This document shows positions 12,261 to 61,562 of a stretch of 64,000 nt of DNA, in pieces. Positions within the stretch are counted from its first letter, which is position 1, and each line of letters opens with the position of its first letter. This stretch comes from an uncultured Christensenella sp. GTDB lineage: Bacteria; Bacillota; Clostridia; Christensenellales; UBA1242. The position numbers and the translations under genes were made by a program. The stretch lies in NCBI GenBank assembly GCA_964455585.1, contig CAYVXW010000005.1:1972-65971 (forward strand), given 5' to 3'. The notes below the pieces were generated by a model that was not told the DNA's origin, did not search any database, and saw only the letters and a program-made list of their open reading frames with translations.

Positions 12261-12991
12261 CACTTGGAAGATTTGAATTAAACAAAGTGTATAACGAAGA
12301 TTGTTATAAAGCAATCAAAGATATCCCAGACAAAAGCATTGATTGTATTTATGTTGATATTCCTTACTTGTTTATGGGGGGGGGTGGAGGCACCAGCCGA
12401 ATCGCACAGCAAGTAAGTAAAATGAAACAAGAACTCAAGGATAATAACATTTATGATGGTATTGATTACAAAATATTTGAAGATTTTGTTAGAGTTCTCA
12501 AAAAAATAAATTGTTTCATTTGGTGTAGTAAAGAACAAATTTATCCAATTTTAGATTGGTGGATGAAAAATACTGACTGCACCTATCAAATACTTTGTTG
12601 GTGTAAAACAAACCCTGTTCCAATGTGTAATGGTAATTGGTTAAGTGATATTGAATATTGTTTGTATTTTAATCGTGGAACGAAATTGAACGATGGAATA
12701 AAACATAAGAGTAAGTGGTATTTAAGTCCACTAAACCAAAAGGATAAAGATAGTTTTGGACATCCAACCATTAAGCCATTGCCATTGGTTGAAAGACACT
12801 TATTACATACAACACAACCAAATGAGATTATTGCAGATTTCTTTTGTGGTAGTGGAACTACTTGTGTTGCTTGTAAAAATAATGGAAGAAATTACATTGG
12901 TTTTGAAATCAATGAAGAGTGGTGGAAAGTTGCAGAGAATAGATTAAACAACATAGATTCTCGTGGGCAAATTAGTCTTTTCACCAAATAA
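12257..12991 (+). CDS. Beta-class N6-adenine/N4-cytosine DNA methyltransferase
   Basis: Motif IV DIPY near the N-terminus and motif I FFCGSGTT near the C-terminus (circularly permuted beta-class order). Confidence 0.8.
   Translation: MTLGRFELNKVYNEDCYKAIKDIPDKSIDCIYVDIPYLFMGGGGGTSRIAQQVSKMKQELKDNNIYDGIDYKIFEDFVRVLKKINCFIWCSKEQIYPILDWWMKNTDCTYQILCWCKTNPVPMCNGNWLSDIEYCLYFNRGTKLNDGIKHKSKWYLSPLNQKDKDSFGHPTIKPLPLVERHLLHTTQPNEIIADFFCGSGTTCVACKNNGRNYIGFEINEEWWKVAENRLNNIDSRGQISLFTK
12376..12384 (+). repeat. Poly-G tract (9 G) inside the N6/N4 methylase coding sequence
   Basis: Read directly: ATG GGG GGG GGT, encoding MGGG just after DIPY. Confidence 0.9.
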
Positions 12992-20781: not shown

Positions 20782-20872
20782 GTTAGCATTTTGAAAGGGT
20801 GAGTTGTGTCTCCCTGTCATACTTGTGCTATATGAAAGAGAACGGGTTTAATGCCCGTTCTCTTTTGCTATT
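20782..20872 (+). ncRNA. Candidate ~90-nt small RNA, antisense to the 3' end of the HNH-like gene
   Basis: Bounded by the promoter above and the hairpin 20836-20864 plus T-rich tail. Internal stem GGGTGA/TCTCCC. No coding potential. Confidence 0.25.
20836..20864 (+). terminator. Hairpin AAGAGAACGGG / CCCGTTCTCTT with T-rich tail on the plus strand
   Basis: 11-bp stem. The stop codon of the minus-strand gene lies in the loop. The T-run is present only on the plus strand. Confidence 0.5.
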
Positions 20873-35146: not shown

Positions 35147-36327
35147 GTAAAATGGGGAATATGCCTAGAATAGAAATTAAATATTTGGTTGACATAGAAC
35201 TAGTTGTCAATTTGGCGAATAGCACACTAAATAACTCTATTGGACATTTATCCGACATTACCAATGATTCATATGCCCACAACAATTCTTCTTTCGATAA
35301 AGAAGGCAAAAAGGGGTTTTATTTAAGTGGTGGTTCGGTAGACAACAATGGCGAAGTTAGTGGTTGTATAATGGATGGCACTTATACTCTTTTTGATAGC
35401 AAGGGGTATGCTGGGGCAGTTGGAAATAGTTTTAGCAAAGATGATTACACTTTTGATACTGAACAATCTATAACTTTACAAGTTAAAAATTCAGATACAA
35501 CAATTAAGCATTTAGTTATATATTTCGATCCAGTTGCGAATGAATATGCCACACAATTATCTTTTAGCAGTGATAGTGCTACAACCATTAACAAAAATTC
35601 AAGACTTGTGTATTTTAAAAATTTTGGCGAAGAATCTAATCTAACATCGGTAAAATGCTCTTTCATAAAATGGAGTAAGAAAAATTCATTGGCAAAGGTT
35701 TTGAAAATAAAAACTGGCTTTACTGGAATTTACGATTATAAGACAATTAAAAAATTTGAATTGTCGGATGAAAAAGTGTCAAACGAGAACGAAATATCGT
35801 TTGGTGTAAGTAGTCAATATTGCGACTTAACTATATTGGATGACACGGGAGATGTCACATCGTTGTTCGGTGCAGATTTGCTATTGGAAAATATTACAGC
35901 ATTTTTCTATATAGTAAACACCAAAACTGCAACTGCCGAAGATGGAACAATTCACGAATTTGAGCAAAGAGAAAAAATTGGTGAACTTGTTATTGACAAA
36001 AAGAAGAATGTTGAGGGTTCAATTAGGTGGACTTATAACTTAATAGATAGACTTGAGCAGTTAAGATCGGTTATTTGTCCGGCATTAGATGTTCAAAACC
36101 GAACACTATATCAAATTATCAATCAAATCACAAGTGAGACAGGTATTGCAAACATTGTTTCGTGGTCTACCGAAGCAGAAGAACATTGCAAAAGTATTAA
36201 GATCGAAAGTTCCTTTATAAAACCAAATCAATATATGTTTGATGTTTTGGGCAAATGCTGTGAAGTCGGTTTGCTAAAAATGTTTATTAACCCAGATGGA
36301 CAATTAAGAATTGAAAGGGGGTTGTAG
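35143..36327 (+). CDS. Tail-associated/baseplate protein
   Basis: Positional call, after the Dit-like gene. Confidence 0.4.
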   Translation: MSKMGNMPRIEIKYLVDIELVVNLANSTLNNSIGHLSDITNDSYAHNNSSFDKEGKKGFYLSGGSVDNNGEVSGCIMDGTYTLFDSKGYAGAVGNSFSKDDYTFDTEQSITLQVKNSDTTIKHLVIYFDPVANEYATQLSFSSDSATTINKNSRLVYFKNFGEESNLTSVKCSFIKWSKKNSLAKVLKIKTGFTGIYDYKTIKKFELSDEKVSNENEISFGVSSQYCDLTILDDTGDVTSLFGADLLLENITAFFYIVNTKTATAEDGTIHEFEQREKIGELVIDKKKNVEGSIRWTYNLIDRLEQLRSVICPALDVQNRTLYQIINQITSETGIANIVSWSTEAEEHCKSIKIESSFIKPNQYMFDVLGKCCEVGLLKMFINPDGQLRIERGL

Positions 36328-37508: not shown

Positions 37509-38393
37509 ATGAGTGCATGGGAACAAAAACCGGAATATACCGAACTTGAAGAAATATTTTCAGAACAAACAACCAATAAAATCGGTTTAACTGCCGAGCA
37601 ACTTAATATAGTATTACATAATATTAGATACTTAAAGAACCATTTAGGTCTTGCAGATGTCGAAATGGGTGTTATGGAAACTGTGTATACGGAACCGGGC
37701 TCACCATTTGATGTTGTGATAACACACAGGGAAGAAAGTCAAGGTGAAGGTGTAAATAAAGTTGATTATTTCGATTTCAAATTTTACATTGCAGTTGCAA
37801 AGATAGAAACCGAAGCCAATGCGATTATTTCTGAAAACACAAATGAAGTTAAAGCAACTATTGAAAATACAAAGTTGTCAGATATGACAGGTTATAAGTT
37901 TAAGTTTAACTTTACAATTCCGAGAGGTTTGCAAGGAACAAAAGGTGCAGGTTTTAGGAATAAAGGAACTTATAACTCCGAGACAACCTATGTAAATAAC
38001 GATATTTATATAGACTATGTTAATTATAATGGTAGTTTGTATTGCCCAAAAGTCGAAGAAACAATAGGACACGAACCAACTGAAACTGATTACTGGACAT
38101 TAATGGTTGCCAAAGGTGAACACGGAGTGAGTATTGTTGGTATAGAAAAAACCAAAACGGAAGGACTGGTTGACACCTATACCATATCATTTAGTGAAGG
38201 TGAACCATTTGTATTCGCAGTCACTAATGGAGACACTCCAGATGTTTCCGACAAAGAAGACAAGTCAAATAAGGTATCCGAAATATCAACATCCAATAAA
38301 ACAAGTGATGAAAAATATCCGTCTTGTTCGGCAGTTGCTAATTATGTCGATACAAAATTTGGAGAAATGGCAACATTGCTAGGTGAGGTGTAA
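37509..38393 (+). CDS. Tail fibre protein
   Basis: Short collagen-like GLQGTKGAG. Sits in the fibre module. Confidence 0.45.
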   Translation: MSAWEQKPEYTELEEIFSEQTTNKIGLTAEQLNIVLHNIRYLKNHLGLADVEMGVMETVYTEPGSPFDVVITHREESQGEGVNKVDYFDFKFYIAVAKIETEANAIISENTNEVKATIENTKLSDMTGYKFKFNFTIPRGLQGTKGAGFRNKGTYNSETTYVNNDIYIDYVNYNGSLYCPKVEETIGHEPTETDYWTLMVAKGEHGVSIVGIEKTKTEGLVDTYTISFSEGEPFVFAVTNGDTPDVSDKEDKSNKVSEISTSNKTSDEKYPSCSAVANYVDTKFGEMATLLGEV

Positions 38394-38394
38394 T

Positions 38395-38709
38395 ATGAAT
38401 GGAGAACAAGCTTTTACAACTCAAATAGATAGAATTAAGGAAAATATTAGCAATGCTTATATTAGAGCAGAACAAAAAGGTGCAACAATGCCTACCATAA
38501 AAAATAGCGACAATCTACCAAGCACAATTGAAAGCATAACTGCTGGTGGTAGTGGTGGTGGAAACTTTGAAAAAATGTATGTCACTCAAACTATAAGTGG
38601 AGATGGTTGCACACTTGCAATTTCTTCGAGTGGTAGTGAAGATGATGCCAAAATTGTTGGACAAATCGTTTCTGGTGAAAACGGAAAAATATACATAGTG
38701 GAGGTCTAA
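38395..38709 (+). CDS. Tail fibre-associated small protein
   Basis: Start ATG 38395. Contains a G-rich linker AGGSGGGN. Confidence 0.35.
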   Translation: MNGEQAFTTQIDRIKENISNAYIRAEQKGATMPTIKNSDNLPSTIESITAGGSGGGNFEKMYVTQTISGDGCTLAISSSGSEDDAKIVGQIVSGENGKIYIVEV

Positions 38710-38710
38710 A

Positions 38711-40015
38711 GTGAGTATAGATACAACCAAAAAGGTAAATGGAATATCTGTAAATGGAACAAATATGCAATTCGGTTCCGGTATAGATTCCAATATATTA
38801 CCAAGTAATATTAAAGAAGGTGTTAGCATTTTGGGTGTTGATGGAACATTCAAAGGTGGCACCTTACAAAACAAAACAATAAACATAACAAGGAATAAAA
38901 CGACCATTGTTACACCCGATGATGGATATTATGGTCTTGGACAAGTTGAAATCATAACAAAGGTTCAAGGCGGCAGTGGTGGAACATCGTCTGCAATCTA
39001 TGGGGTGTCTTGGGATAACGATGGCACAACAACAATGACAAGAACCGATGATGCTGTAGAAATGACTTATGCGATTTCAAACGGAAAAGTTGCAAGTGAT
39101 TTTGACAATGTGTTCCCATACAACGAAATGAAAAGAACAACAATAGACGGAAATGTATTTGTACATGTTCCTGCCATGTTCTTTAGGGTAACAGTTGATG
39201 AGGACAAAAAAATCACAGGTGTTGCAGTAAGTCAAACACAAGGTGAGGGTGATGACTGGTATGAAACAAGACCTTTCTATTACGGAGCCTATGGTGCATC
39301 TAGTGATGGTTCGGTATTAAAATCGGTTAGTGGTGCAAGTAGAAAATATTCTATTACAAGAGCAAATGCAAGAACCCAGGCAATGGCAGTTGGAACTGAT
39401 TATCACCAAAGAGACCTATATGCTGGAACAATACTTATGTTCTTGTGGTGGATAGAATTTGCAACCAAAAACTCGGCAAGTATTATGACAGGCACACAAT
39501 ATGACAAAACCACTGGCAATACCGATAGCATTTACAACGAAGAAGAAGGTGAAAATTTCTGTGTTAGTGGTTATAATACATCCACATCTCAAATGGTATG
39601 GCACGGAATTGAAGATTATATCGGAAATGGTCTTGAGTGGGAAGATGGAATTACCGGTAATGGTTCTTCTGGTGGAACTCAATATGTGAGTGATGACTAC
39701 ACTCTATATGACGATTATTCTGGTGGGAGCAAGATGTCAGAATTGTCGTTCAATTCTCCGACAACAAGTGGGAACTGTCTAGAGGCTCTTGGCTGGGATG
39801 AAGATCATCCATTCTTGGTTCAACCTATTGCAACACGAAGTGATGGTAGTTATGTGAGTGGGTTCTGCGACTATGGTTCGACTAGCAACAATATAGTCTC
39901 CTCCCGTGGGTGTAGCTACCCGTCGAGTGCCTACAGCGGGGTCTCTTACTTCGCTCGTCGCAATGTGTCGCCTTCGTATTCGGACATCGGTTGTCGCCTT
40001 CTATTAAATGCCTAG
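38711..40015 (+). CDS. DGR target protein: receptor-binding tail fibre with C-terminal FGE/C-type-lectin-like variable domain
   Basis: GTG start. IGNGLEWEDG (FGE-sulfatase-like motif). The C-terminal 36 codons form the VR, ending ...IGCRLLLNA. Confidence 0.85.
   Translation: MSIDTTKKVNGISVNGTNMQFGSGIDSNILPSNIKEGVSILGVDGTFKGGTLQNKTINITRNKTTIVTPDDGYYGLGQVEIITKVQGGSGGTSSAIYGVSWDNDGTTTMTRTDDAVEMTYAISNGKVASDFDNVFPYNEMKRTTIDGNVFVHVPAMFFRVTVDEDKKITGVAVSQTQGEGDDWYETRPFYYGAYGASSDGSVLKSVSGASRKYSITRANARTQAMAVGTDYHQRDLYAGTILMFLWWIEFATKNSASIMTGTQYDKTTGNTDSIYNEEEGENFCVSGYNTSTSQMVWHGIEDYIGNGLEWEDGITGNGSSGGTQYVSDDYTLYDDYSGGSKMSELSFNSPTTSGNCLEALGWDEDHPFLVQPIATRSDGSYVSGFCDYGSTSNNIVSSRGCSYPSSAYSGVSYFARRNVSPSYSDIGCRLLLNA
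39896..40005 (+). repeat. DGR variable region (VR)
   Basis: 110-bp alignment to 40089-40198 at a constant offset of 193. 16 mismatches fall at TR adenines and 2 do not. Confidence 0.85.
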
Positions 40016-40027
40016 ACAGGGGGCAGT

Positions 40028-40042
40028 GGGGGATATTCCCCC
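40028..40042 (+). promoter_or_regulatory. GC hairpin downstream of VR (GGGGGA-TAT-TCCCCC)
   Basis: 6-bp stem and 3-nt loop, about 22 nt after the end of VR homology. Confidence 0.6.
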
Positions 40043-40088
40043 AAATACAACCAATTACAATTAAATAAAATAAAGGGTATTTGTTGCT

Positions 40089-40198
40089 GTCTCCTACCGT
40101 GGTTGTAACAACCCGTCGAATGCCAACAACGGGGTCTCTTACTTCAATCGTAACAATGTGTCGAATTCGAATTCGAACATCGGTTGTCGCAATGTATT
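40089..40198 (+). repeat. DGR template repeat (TR), non-coding
   Basis: In the VR frame it reads V S Y R G C N N P S N A N N G V S Y F N R N N V S N S N S N I G C R N, with 12 AAY codons. Confidence 0.85.
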
Positions 40199-40326
40199 TC
40201 CAAAAGCATCAAAAAGAAAATTCGTTTTCAAGGCAACACTTATCCTATACCACTTGGTAGAAAACACTCCGAACTAGGAGTAGGTTAGTAAATAATTGAA
40301 AGCTTACTAGGGGAAATAGATGGTTT

Positions 40327-41406
40327 ATGAAAAGAGTAGGATATATTTATGAAAAGATTATTGATTTGCAAAATTTAGAGTTGGCAATTGTAAAAGCATG
40401 TGAACACAAAAAGAAAAATAAGTTTATTGTTCATTTGTTGGAGAATAAAAGTTCATATGCTCAAGAAATAAGAACTCTAATTTTACAGGAAGATTTCCAT
40501 CCTTTAATCATTAAACATAAGAAAATAAAAGAAAAGACCAAAGTAAGAGATATTGCAGTTCCAAAGTTTTATCCAGACCAAATTATTCATTGGGCAGTTT
40601 GTTTACAATTGAATCAGATATTTATGAAAGGTATGTATCATTACAATTGTGGCAGTGTTCCAAATCGTGGTGGAGTTTATGCTAAAAAATATATCGAAAA
40701 ATGTTATTCAATATTAAAAGAGAAAAAATCTTACACGTTGAAACTTGACATTAAAAAATATTTTTACAACATTTCACACGAAAAAATGGAAGAATTGTTT
40801 CGAGAAAAAATTAAAGATGAAAGAGTTCTTGAAATGCTACACAAAATTATTGATTGTGGGGAAGATGGTTTACCAATAGGGTTTTATACATCCCAATGGT
40901 TCGCAAATTTTTATCTTCATAGACTTGATAATTATATAAAACAAGTATTACAAATTAAATACTATATTAGATATGTAGATGATATGGTTTTAATTGATAC
41001 AAATAAACGAAAATTACACAAGGCAGTTGAAGAAATACAAAAATATCTCGATAACAATAGTTATTGTGTAACACTAAAAGATAATTGGCAGTTGTGGAAA
41101 ACCTTTTCTCGACCACTTGATTTTCTAGGATATAGGTTCTACAAAAATTATACATTGTTGAGAAAAGGAATTCTCAAGAAAATGAAAAGACAAATCTTGA
41201 GAGTTGGAAAAGAAAAGACTTTGAGAATATGTAGGGCAAGGGCATTGACTTCGTATATGGGTTGGTTAAAACAAACAAGCATATCAAGGAGTTTCTATGT
41301 CAAACATATTAGACCTACTTGCAGTAAAAAATGGGTTGGCAGAATAATATCACATGATAGTAAAAGGAGAAATAAAAATGATAATAAAAGACGGAACAAA
41401 CCCTAA
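40327..41406 (+). CDS. DGR reverse transcriptase
   Basis: RT motif 5 IRYVDDMVLI (YxDD). DGR-type motif 4 LPIGFYTSQWFANFYL. 359 aa, directly downstream of TR. Confidence 0.9.
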   Translation: MKRVGYIYEKIIDLQNLELAIVKACEHKKKNKFIVHLLENKSSYAQEIRTLILQEDFHPLIIKHKKIKEKTKVRDIAVPKFYPDQIIHWAVCLQLNQIFMKGMYHYNCGSVPNRGGVYAKKYIEKCYSILKEKKSYTLKLDIKKYFYNISHEKMEELFREKIKDERVLEMLHKIIDCGEDGLPIGFYTSQWFANFYLHRLDNYIKQVLQIKYYIRYVDDMVLIDTNKRKLHKAVEEIQKYLDNNSYCVTLKDNWQLWKTFSRPLDFLGYRFYKNYTLLRKGILKKMKRQILRVGKEKTLRICRARALTSYMGWLKQTSISRSFYVKHIRPTCSKKWVGRIISHDSKRRNKNDNKRRNKP

Positions 41407-41638
41407 AATTGAAAAATTAAAAACTAGGCTTGGACTGACTGGAGATGTCTATCTTTATAACAACCATTTTGTCGAGAATTTGGAAAGTCACAAAAGACTA
41501 ATTCCAAATAGCACTGCCACCACTATAAGTGAAGCATTTGTTGAGAGGGTTGAGTATGAAATTGAACAAGAGAAAATTCGAGAAGAAATGCAAAAAGAAC
41601 AAATTGCAGAAGGGGAAGAAAAACCAGTCGAGATATAA
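41378..41638 (+). CDS. Hypothetical acidic protein overlapping the RT 3' end
   Basis: ATG 41378 (track start 41354 is an alternative). No motif recognised. Confidence 0.35.
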   Translation: MIIKDGTNPKIEKLKTRLGLTGDVYLYNNHFVENLESHKRLIPNSTATTISEAFVERVEYEIEQEKIREEMQKEQIAEGEEKPVEI

Positions 41639-43594: not shown

Positions 43595-43603
43595 GGGGGG
43601 GGG
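43595..43603 (+). repeat. Poly-G tract (9 G) upstream of the lipoprotein gene
   Basis: Read directly. Immediately followed by TATGAT, 65 nt before ATG 43668. Confidence 0.9.
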
Positions 43604-59306: not shown

Positions 59307-61562
59307 ATGAAATTTGGAAAGGTTGCAAGCGTGACAAAAAAAGACAATAGGTATTATGGTGCAAAAAAACGCCAAATGCCATTTAGTTTAATATTGTTAA
59401 TATGCTTGGCAGTGTGTATTGTTAGCACTACTGTGGCATATTTTTTTGCATCCGATTGGGCAGGTAAATACACCACAATGTCCGGTAAAGTAGATATCGA
59501 GGCGGTCAGTAGCACGGGCTCAAGCATTGAGGATAGAGTAGACGGCGATGTAACCATATCCAATTTGAAAGTGTCGCTAGAGGATAACTACAAGTTTTTA
59601 ATTTCAGGTATGGATATAAAAATGCCCGCTTATGTAAAGGTATATCAGTCCACCACAAAGCCTCTCCTTAGGGCAAAGTTCTCCCTTAAACTATATAAGA
59701 CCACAACTGGTGGTGATGTGCTACTAGAGGGGACAAGTGACCCCAAAAACATTTCTACCCAAATGACCTCAAGTATACACTCGGTTATAGAGACAAATGG
59801 TTGGGTTCTAAACGATGATGGATATTATTATTACATAAAAGGTAGCACCATTCAAGACCCTGTTTCTAATACAATAATGTACGAAGTCGATGCAACGGCG
59901 GGTAATGTTATTGAGCCGTTTGTAAAGGATACCGACCTTATCAAATTTCCCGAGGATATTGATGCCTCCTATTCGGGTTTGAAAATTAAGTTTTCAGTCA
60001 CCTTTGAGGCTATACAAAATTATATTCCAAACCCCGATGACGATGGAAAAACCAACCTTCCAAACACAATTGCCAATTCAAAGCGTATCTTTGATGATGG
60101 CGACGAAATTGGTGGGGGGGGGGCTAGCCTAACGGAGGAAGAAATCTTCCAAATATATCTAGACGCCCTAAACAATATGTCCACAACCCCAACGGGCGGA
60201 TATGTGGCAAATAGCATAGGTTTTGGTTTCCAAAACGGATATAGTGAAGGTGAAAAAATAACAAGCGCCTATAATGGTAATAGTTATGATTCTTTGTACT
60301 TTATTCTTGAAGATAGCCCTACAACCTCGTATGTTGAATATGACCCTTATTCGGATGCTGTAATCTACTGGTATCCTAAAAAAGTTGACAACAAGTATGT
60401 GGTGAAGTATGTAAATGGTGGCGAATTGTACCAAGATGACGAAGTTACGGTCAATGACCTTGCAACCGCAGTTTCGGATCAATATTCGTCCGTTGTGGAA
60501 GCGATAAAAAAGGACTCTTTTGGTTTAAGTGGTTCCACATCTTTTTCTGGATTTTATGAAGAAATAAAATTAGTGTTCCTTGAAGACTATGGCTTTAGCG
60601 AGCAAGTCGTGGACGCAAATGTAAATTACACCTTGGATAAAAGTGGTGGGGTATATAATTTTGTTGTTAGTGGTGATTGTGCGGAGTATATTGATGGCAC
60701 TTGGACTAGACTAAAAATGAGTGCTACAGTCAAATTCAATGGTACTATGGTTTACAAATCTTCCTTTGAACAATTGGAACAAGTGGGCACTTTGCCTAGC
60801 GATATTACTGAGGAATATAGGGTTGTCGAGGACTATGCAATAGAAGGTTATTCAACCAAATATAAGCCAGACATATCGGACATAGAAATACCGGAGGAAT
60901 ACAACGAAATTCTTAAATCGGCATATGCCAAAATGAACGCCAATAACGGCTTTGTGCTTAAGGATTATACCTGGATAAGTTGGACTGGTGAAGGTGACGT
61001 AGATAGTGGTGCGTTTGGTAGAATATCCGCATACGATGGCACTAATAAGGAATCGGCATATAGTGTGGAAAAATATTTGGATGTGGTGGATTATACCGAT
61101 TGGTCAAAGGGTGTGTTGGACTTTTATTATGCGTTCGGCTATGAAGATGGTTCATTGTACTATTACAATAGCGACAATAAATCTATAGCAACAGATAGTA
61201 ATAAAGAAAAAGTTGCAAGTGACCAAATTGAAAAATTTAATTCGGCTTTATCTACAATTGGTGACTATATTGGCGAAACGGGTGGTGATACGGTTACTAA
61301 TTTACGTGATGCGTTAGTCAGTTTTGGTGTTTCGGAATCTGAAATAGTGGCATCGTACACAAAAAATGGTGACACCTATAAGATATCTGTTACTGGAACA
61401 GTTGAAGGGGTAAGGTGGGAATGTGCTATTGAGTTTACTGAAGACGCCATAACTAAGTACTATTTTAAGATAGAACAAAACTATCCTGACAAGGAAAATG
61501 GTGCTTGGCATTATAGTGGATACGATTTTGAAGCCTATAGCACTACTTATAAGCCTATATAG
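59307..61562 (+). CDS. Large secreted/surface protein with SipW-type (TasA-class) signal peptide
   Basis: N-terminal PFSLILLICLAVCIVSTTVAYFFASD resembles the SipW-cognate signal class (..gTyAyFtD). 751 aa, T/S/Y/G/D-rich. Confidence 0.6.
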   Translation: MKFGKVASVTKKDNRYYGAKKRQMPFSLILLICLAVCIVSTTVAYFFASDWAGKYTTMSGKVDIEAVSSTGSSIEDRVDGDVTISNLKVSLEDNYKFLISGMDIKMPAYVKVYQSTTKPLLRAKFSLKLYKTTTGGDVLLEGTSDPKNISTQMTSSIHSVIETNGWVLNDDGYYYYIKGSTIQDPVSNTIMYEVDATAGNVIEPFVKDTDLIKFPEDIDASYSGLKIKFSVTFEAIQNYIPNPDDDGKTNLPNTIANSKRIFDDGDEIGGGGASLTEEEIFQIYLDALNNMSTTPTGGYVANSIGFGFQNGYSEGEKITSAYNGNSYDSLYFILEDSPTTSYVEYDPYSDAVIYWYPKKVDNKYVVKYVNGGELYQDDEVTVNDLATAVSDQYSSVVEAIKKDSFGLSGSTSFSGFYEEIKLVFLEDYGFSEQVVDANVNYTLDKSGGVYNFVVSGDCAEYIDGTWTRLKMSATVKFNGTMVYKSSFEQLEQVGTLPSDITEEYRVVEDYAIEGYSTKYKPDISDIEIPEEYNEILKSAYAKMNANNGFVLKDYTWISWTGEGDVDSGAFGRISAYDGTNKESAYSVEKYLDVVDYTDWSKGVLDFYYAFGYEDGSLYYYNSDNKSIATDSNKEKVASDQIEKFNSALSTIGDYIGETGGDTVTNLRDALVSFGVSESEIVASYTKNGDTYKISVTGTVEGVRWECAIEFTEDAITKYYFKIEQNYPDKENGAWHYSGYDFEAYSTTYKPI
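60114..60123 (+). repeat. Poly-G tract (10 G) inside the surface-protein coding sequence
   Basis: Read directly: GGT GGG GGG GGG GCT, encoding GGGGA. Confidence 0.9.

Follow-up and report, generated by a model that had tools for sequence, protein, structure and literature searches.

In diversity-generating retroelements (DGRs), the reverse transcriptase (RT) copies the RNA of a template repeat (TR) into cDNA with misincorporation opposite adenines, and the cDNA replaces a variable repeat (VR). A DGR cassette of a phage in a 64,000-nucleotide stretch of a contig from an uncultured Christensenella sp. (CAYVXW010000005.1; the whole stretch is hereinafter referred to as the window) raises the question of what marks one repeat as the recipient and the other as the donor, since both carry the same block at the place expected for the initiation of mutagenic homing (IMH) sequence. 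A short GC-rich hairpin, preceded by a tract of five guanines (G5 tract), was found downstream of VR and not of TR. The comparisons with related DGRs make it likely that hairpin and tract together are a cis-acting target-site element of this phage DGR.

The hairpin downstream of VR

The hairpin starts 29 nt past the end of VR/TR identity and 11 nt past the stop codon of the target gene. The original prediction, made from the letters of the DNA, had described a perfect 6-bp stem with a 3-nt loop at 40028-40042 (GGGGGATATTCCCCC). This structure was confirmed, except that an added T-A pair extends the stem to 7 bp (TGGGGGA-tat-TCCCCCA; Table 1). Alternatively, 6 bp with a 5-nt loop (ATATT) can form if the A-T closing pair opens. 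For either strand, energies of -6.6 and -11.3 kcal/mol were calculated with the DNA and the RNA parameters, respectively.

Hairpins with at least 6 bp, at least five G-C pairs and loops of 3-8 nt were present at six sites in the window, compared with a mean of 0.77 in its dinucleotide shuffles. From these counts, the chance of finding such a hairpin within 50 nt after VR was estimated to be roughly 0.005 or less. No hairpin was predicted in the 70 nt after TR. Thus, the claims that the element has the right position and composition for a DGR hairpin (29 nt past VR identity, five G-C pairs) and that no equivalent follows TR were both borne out.

Conservation, covariation and specificity among related DGRs

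Because a search of the cassette DNA against GenBank phages gave no match, relatives were collected via the RT protein, and the comparisons were anchored on RT because just one IMG/VR locus was related to the target protein. RT-homologous loci were taken from IMG/VR, JGI/ENA metagenomes and GTDB genomes (80 each; individual loci are cited by an L number). The best RT match, with 50% identity, was from a metagenome-assembled genome (MAG) of Acholeplasmatales (L162), and the matches in GTDB genomes were mainly gut and rumen MAGs of Bacilli, Clostridia and Mollicutes. TR/VR pairs, detected as adenine-biased imperfect direct repeats, were found in 135 loci and provided 102 distinct post-VR sequences.

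Of the 102 flanks, 88% had a hairpin of -6 kcal/mol or lower (DNA parameters) in the first 70 nt past VR, compared with 6% after TR and 11% at random sites of the same loci. One recognisable form was shared by 84 flanks, in which G5 and N3 precede the arms [N GGGGG N] and [N CCCCC N], separated by a loop, and an A-rich tail follows. A few relatives carried unrelated stems after VR, namely long AT-rich hairpins (L026 and L045), GCCGACC/GGTCGGC (L210) and ACCTCTCCC/GGGAGAGGT (L236), which fits selection on structure rather than on sequence.

The spacing between the end of VR identity and the hairpin was near-constant in the relatives (median, 26 nt; interquartile range, 24-28 nt), whereas the distance from the hairpin to TR varied from 18 to 1038 nt, and the hairpin was therefore assigned to VR and not to TR. 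This difference bears on another possible role, namely that of a 5' flank structure of the TR transcript, comparable to the avd 3' segment of phage BPP-1, which would serve RT binding or cDNA termination. Such a role would suit the window, where just 45 nt separate the hairpin from the downstream TR, no Avd-like gene is found between the two repeats, and the other flank of TR bears a conserved structured RNA (RT-18). In the relatives, however, the motif stayed with VR even in loci with about 1 kb between VR and the downstream TR (L022, L092, L119, L189), and in loci with several TR-like copies it occurred once, after the most upstream copy. Together with the spacing data, these observations make a function in the DGR RNA very improbable.

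Covariation was counted on sequences anchored on the G run and the C run only, so that no folding program had selected the pairs beforehand. The inner flanking pair was Watson-Crick in 33 of 34 distinct hairpins (A-T in 12, C-G in 12 and T-A in 9; shuffle mean 0.34, maximum 0.68), and the outer flanking pair in 33 of 37 (T-A in 22, A-T in 8 and C-G in 3; shuffle mean 0.49, maximum 0.76). The closest relative, L162 (AGGGGGA-tttc-TCCCCCT), differs from the window by a compensatory swap of the outer pair. In an unselected MAFFT alignment (A2), 88.4% of the cells were paired, compared with 79.7% in shuffled alignments, and none of 500 shuffles reached the observed value. The covariation score of A2 was 0.278, compared with 0.119 in the shuffles (0 of 500), and all slid registers were at most 70% paired. 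A covariance model derived from 24 relatives with the same geometry was also tried; it was too specific for the GGYCA loop and was replaced by the core-anchored counting.

The original prediction had proposed a comparison with related DGRs for a stem with covarying sequence, and had named the lack of any conserved stem in homologous cassettes as grounds for rejecting its proposal. The result was the opposite, in that a stem recurs in the large majority of distinct VR flanks, with compensatory changes beside the G5:C5 core. The short stem (6-7 bp) and a covariance-model score that is not significant by itself would be compatible with a chance inverted repeat without function; its rarity in the window, family-wide conservation, covariation and DGR specificity effectively refute this explanation, the probability of which we regard as negligible.

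In about 26 distinct sequences, the C arm carried a T (GCCTCCCA or GCCTCCA), as in TGGGGGC-GGCCA-GCCTCCCA. The loci with this variant included L012, L025, L033, L036, L053, L055, L108, L174, L222 and L238. On the sense strand, the variant leads to a bulged T or a G-T pair, and on the antisense strand to an A bulge or an A-C mismatch. These variants are mild evidence for folding of the sense strand, in line with the lagging-strand model considered below, and the sense strand may accordingly be taken as the candidate folding strand.

To return to DGR specificity, the motif expression matched 158 sites in 1.36 Mb of related loci, of which 157 were on the RT-sense strand and 105 followed a detected VR by no more than 70 nt. 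The other matches came mostly from loci where VR was cut off or the detector had failed. A VR-like repeat ended just before the motif in most of the rechecked remainder, and all placeable matches follow VR or VR-like repeats. In a reverse test, all of IMG/VR was scanned for GGGGGNNNGGGGGYGRYCARCC, which gave 94 stretches, 59 of them with enough flanking sequence. In these 59 loci, selected by the motif alone, an RT homologue was found downstream on the same strand in 54 (median distance, 384 nt) and a TR-like copy of the sequence preceding the motif in 55. The motif was not found at other gene ends, either in the 64-kb window or in the flanking DNA of the relatives.

This distribution is also informative about a role at the RNA level only, in which the hairpin would act as a terminator or as a stabiliser of the mRNA 3' end, insulating TR/RT transcription, and would take no part in homing. 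The location 11 nt past the stop codon and the stable RNA hairpin (-11.3 kcal/mol) would allow this, and the G-T (G-U) pairs or bulged T of some relatives would be better tolerated by RNA, or by sense-strand single-stranded DNA, than by a symmetric cruciform; the same possibility is weighed by Wu et al. (2018, PMC5758913). However, the hairpin in the window is followed by AAATACAACC, which contains no T-run, and a terminator scan made no call. The 10 nt past the stem contained on average 5.3 A and 2.8 T in the relatives, with a T-rich tail in only 6 of 84. Because the tail is A-rich and not T-rich, the hairpin is not a canonical terminator. Nor is the motif a general gene-end signal, since it occurs once in the window and its placeable matches in the related loci are confined to the downstream side of VR or VR-like repeats. 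In the survey of Wu et al. (PMC5758913), terminator features after IMH are likewise limited to a minority of DGRs, and the same conclusion is reached on DGR inverted repeats in general. Action at the RNA level alone is therefore improbable, and the terminator-only explanation, which the original prediction had listed as a second way in which it might fail, proved weak.

Two further features were observed in the relatives. A second small conserved hairpin (e.g., AATCGAC-TTTA-GTCGATT) follows the A-rich tail in many of them, about 10-20 nt after the G hairpin in L003, L012, L022, L085, L092 and L169, and is not present in the window. In addition, the interval between VR and RT holds two or three diverged TR-like copies, at spacings of about 160-600 nt, in L006 (2559-3392), L094, L113 (1211-1888), L116, L118, L170 and L173; these are loci in which the G hairpin occurs once, and the extra copies may be multiple TRs or decayed copies.

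The upstream G5 tract and the DGR cassette

The G5 tract upstream of the hairpin lies inside the interval marked by the original prediction (40006-40050) and was passed over there. The arrangement G5-N2-5-G5 had one occurrence in the window, compared with 0.04 expected. Of the 84 relatives with the recognisable form, 79 had an upstream G tract, and in 66 the gap between tract and G core was 3 nt, compared with 4 nt in the window. The tract also tracks the 5' arm in length and sequence, with G4/G4 in 6, G5/G5 in 57, G6/G6 in 3 and GGAGG/GGAGG in L107. In L235, L240 and L241, which are from Kiritimatiellia and Hydrogenedentota MAGs and in which RT is only 26-29% identical, a related motif was found together with the upstream tract. 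No other feature accompanying the hairpin was as well conserved as this tract.

It is conceivable, although we consider it rather doubtful, that the functional unit is a composite module, G5-N3-[N-G5-N / loop / N-C5-N], and not a plain hairpin. The tract could pair with the same C tract as an alternative 5' arm, fold back as a third strand to form a purine-motif G*G:C triplex on the stem, or serve as a second copy of a protein-binding site. The variants are split between readings of the tract, since L079 and L028 fit a mirrored arrangement and L065, L158 and L162 fit a direct one. If true, any of these roles would make the tract a target-recognition determinant that we have not found described for DGRs; a text search linking DGRs with G-tracts, triplexes or G-quadruplexes found no DGR paper in the portions of the literature that it covered. 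The upstream tract is a modest lead, previously undescribed as far as that search shows.

Two other explanations of the tract were rejected. A first hairpin, in which the C-rich last codons pair with the upstream G tract and the stop codon lies in the loop, seemed possible by eye in some relatives (CGCCCttaaGGGGCG), but it was not recovered by RNAalifold and was weak both in the window and for the ACCAG class. A Shine-Dalgarno function for a micro-open reading frame (ORF) was also rejected, as the sole start-like codon, 2-3 nt away, is not followed by an ORF, although elsewhere in this phage G runs precede start codons. In the window as a whole, 22 G runs of at least 5 nt were found on the + strand, compared with 2 C runs. 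They include G homopolymers of 9-10 nt at 12376-12384, 43595-43603 and 60114-60123 (+), which could be slippage-prone. Shorter G runs at 36317 and 13659, just before ATG starts, resemble ribosome-binding sites.

A complete DGR surrounds the hairpin, including the target gene, VR, TR, RT-18 RNA and RT, with the order target-VR-TR-RT (Table 1). A 110-nt direct repeat pairs 39896-40005 with 40089-40198 at an offset of 193. The whole VR corresponds to 39896-39997, and VR and TR are 91 nt apart. Over this VR, 15 mismatches were found between the two copies. Adenine stands in the downstream copy at 14 of them, which affect codon positions 1 and 2, and this copy was therefore identified as TR. The sole mismatch off TR adenines (G at 39910 in VR, T at 40103 in TR) is at codon position 3. 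No second VR was found in the window.

Table 1. Coordinates of the hairpin, the G5 tract and the DGR features in the window.
Feature	Position	Strand	Basis
DGR target gene, 434 aa	38711..40015	+	ORF list; VR is the part coding for the C-terminus
VR, mutagenised part	39896..39983	+	Direct repeat with TR, adenine-biased mismatches
IMH-like block ACATCGGTTGTCGC, 14 nt, identical in VR and TR	39984..39997	+	IMH assignment by position only
VR-specific 3' segment CTTCTATTAAATGCC (TR: AATGTATTTCCAAAA)	39998..40012	+	Candidate discriminating part, IMH vs IMH*
Stop codon (TAG) of target gene	40013..40015	+	Sequence
G5 tract (run 1), CAG spacer of 3 nt to hairpin	40019..40023	+	Sequence; G5-N2-5-G5 unique in window
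Hairpin TGGGGGA-tat-TCCCCCA, 7 bp including five G-C pairs, 3-nt loop	40027..40043	+	Perfect stem; homologous covarying stems
TR	40089..40190	+	Direct repeat with VR; IMH*-like block at 40177-40190
RT-18 RNA motif (Rfam RF03021), spacer between TR and RT	40248..40321	+	52.8 bits vs gathering score of 41.3
DGR RT, 359 aa	40327..41406	+	Pfam RVT_1, E = 1.8e-14; PHROG 1423 reverse transcriptase, E = 3.5e-87

With regard to the block shared by VR and TR, the letters and coordinates of the original prediction were right. CATCGGTTGTCGC at 39985-39997 in VR recurs with the same letters at 40178-40190 in TR, after which VR continues with CTTCTATTAAATGCC and TR with AATGTATTTCCAAAA. Its description as GC-rich held in part, since 62% G+C is rich for a window of 34.5% G+C, yet the block is not GC-only like its counterpart in BPP-1, which is (GC)14. 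Two adenines within 39984-39997 were left unmutated. The layout fits that of IMH and IMH*, with a relatively GC-rich shared block that would bound the A-to-N mutagenesis, followed by sequence that diverges between VR and TR. The first two differences past the block (AA in TR, CT in VR) are both at TR adenines, and TATT, common to both, comes next, so that the boundary between IMH and the mutagenised region is ambiguous. In L162 the divergence is mirrored (CGC-CTTCTAT in VR and CGC-AAACTAT in TR, i.e., CTT vs AAx as in the window), and the reading as IMH versus IMH* would fit both the layout and this relative.

The RT translation carries IGFYTSQ and YVDD, and an [I/L/V]GxxxSQ motif is typical of DGR RTs. 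A DGR-type RT adjoining the TR/VR pair was confirmed by these motifs and by the Pfam and PHROG matches (Table 1), and its relatives likewise adjoin TR/VR pairs. The C-terminal tail of RT is rich in lysine and arginine. Of 10 relatives tested, 8 likewise had RT-18 RNA between TR and the RT start (e.g., L162, 2416-2493; L003, 3878-3969; L028, 3927-3999). This motif probably forms a structured spacer within the DGR RNA and serves to recruit or prime RT. No Avd-like gene was identified among the ORFs between VR and TR, and the two small ORFs beside the cassette that were screened (38383-38709 and 41354-41638) had no significant Pfam or PHROG match. The target protein showed no Pfam, PHROG or credible PDB sequence match. 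An ORF upstream of it (37509-38393) matched PHROG tail-fibre families, and the label "fibre" for the target derives solely from this neighbour. Elsewhere in the window, the strongest hairpin (20835-20865) has a 12-bp stem, AAAGAGAACGGG-tttaatg-CCCGTTCTCTTT, with A and T runs at its flanks, and resembles a bidirectional terminator.

Proposed role and comparison with known systems

As in DGRs generally, the cDNA would replace VR, here at the 3' end of a gene in the tail-fibre region. If hairpin and G5 tract are a target-site element, the inverted repeat would designate VR to receive the cDNA and would leave TR protected as the donor, because it follows VR alone though both repeats share the IMH-like block. 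The likeliest form would be a stem-loop extruded from the sense strand while this is single-stranded, be it in a cruciform promoted by supercoiling or in the lagging-strand template. This stem-loop may keep the adjoining IMH and VR open for annealing of the antisense cDNA. By analogy with BPP-1, we infer that the hairpin would raise homing efficiency and that DNA, rather than RNA, would be its active form.

According to Guo et al. (2011, PMC3240598), efficient homing in BPP-1 depends on a hairpin/cruciform located past IMH. The structure of its stem matters and the stem sequence does not, the 4-nt GRNA loop (sense-strand consensus) is sequence-critical, and phage DGRs have GC-rich stems of 7-10 bp located 4-34 bp after VR. 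In a system reconstituted in 2026, deletion of the stem-loop impaired editing. That report (PMC12875486) describes how DGR cDNA finds and replaces VR as still unresolved, and proposes that the cDNA anneals to the single-stranded sense strand on the lagging-strand template while the stem-loop prolongs the open state. In the survey of Wu et al. (PMC5758913), GC-rich inverted repeats after IMH were present in 34% of 372 curated DGRs.

The window resembles BPP-1 in having a GC-rich inverted repeat after VR and none after TR, beside a shared IMH-like block. It resembles the BPP-1 class in its spacing (29 nt, inside the reported 4-34 bp) and in that the structure is kept while the stem sequence varies, as seen from the compensatory changes and the unrelated stems of some relatives. 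It differs from BPP-1 in the order target-VR-TR-RT, in that no Avd-like ORF was seen adjoining the cassette, and in the G5 tract before the stem, which is not mentioned in the passages available from the DGR literature.

Other points weigh against a target-site element of this class. The stem of 7 bp is at the short end of the reported range of 7-10 bp (the BPP-1 stem has 8 bp), and the loop, TAT or ATATT, departs from the 4-nt GRNA. In most relatives the loop is 5 nt long, with the sequence GGYCA or GRCCA; both correspond to G-R-N-N-A and are thus GRNA-like plus one base, and among the relatives that share the GGGGGA/TCCCCC arms of the window the loop sequence is variable. The covariance model mentioned above gave the window element 8.9 bits (E = 1.8), below unrelated sites, a score that we take to indicate a divergent member. 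The shuffle-based covariation statistics overstate independence because the relatives share ancestry. The stem is equally stable as RNA, which leaves room for a role at that level, and, as the percentage of Wu et al. (PMC5758913) indicates, the feature is not universal among DGRs.

The element itself adds no new principle. Its relatives reveal that one large DGR clade, with RT-18 RNA beside RT and derived from gut phages and from MAGs of Bacilli, Clostridia and Mollicutes, carries a nearly invariant and easily recognised VR flank. Three constraints of this family, i.e., the G5:C5 core with covarying flanking pairs, the sense-strand G-T pair or bulged T in many members, and the upstream G5 tract, together suggest that it is the sense strand that folds, and they supply testable mutants for reconstituted homing assays and for DGR target engineering.

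The intrinsic terminator is likewise a GC-rich stem-loop just past a stop codon, but the present element lacks a U/T tract, has an A-rich tail and is confined to VR flanks. Compared with the inverted repeats described by Wu et al. (PMC5758913), it has the same position and composition and is mostly without terminator features; it differs in its frequency (34% of 372 DGRs there, about 88% of distinct VR flanks here) and in its nearly fixed G5:C5 core. The targets of group IIC introns, with which an analogy is drawn in PMC3240598, are similar in that a retroelement uses as its landmark a GC-rich DNA stem-loop recognised by structure, although a DGR has no intron or ribozyme and its outcome is replacement of sequence and not insertion. 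Taken together, the sequence comparisons support the assignment of the element as a new, somewhat divergent member of the known class of DGR target hairpins/cruciforms.

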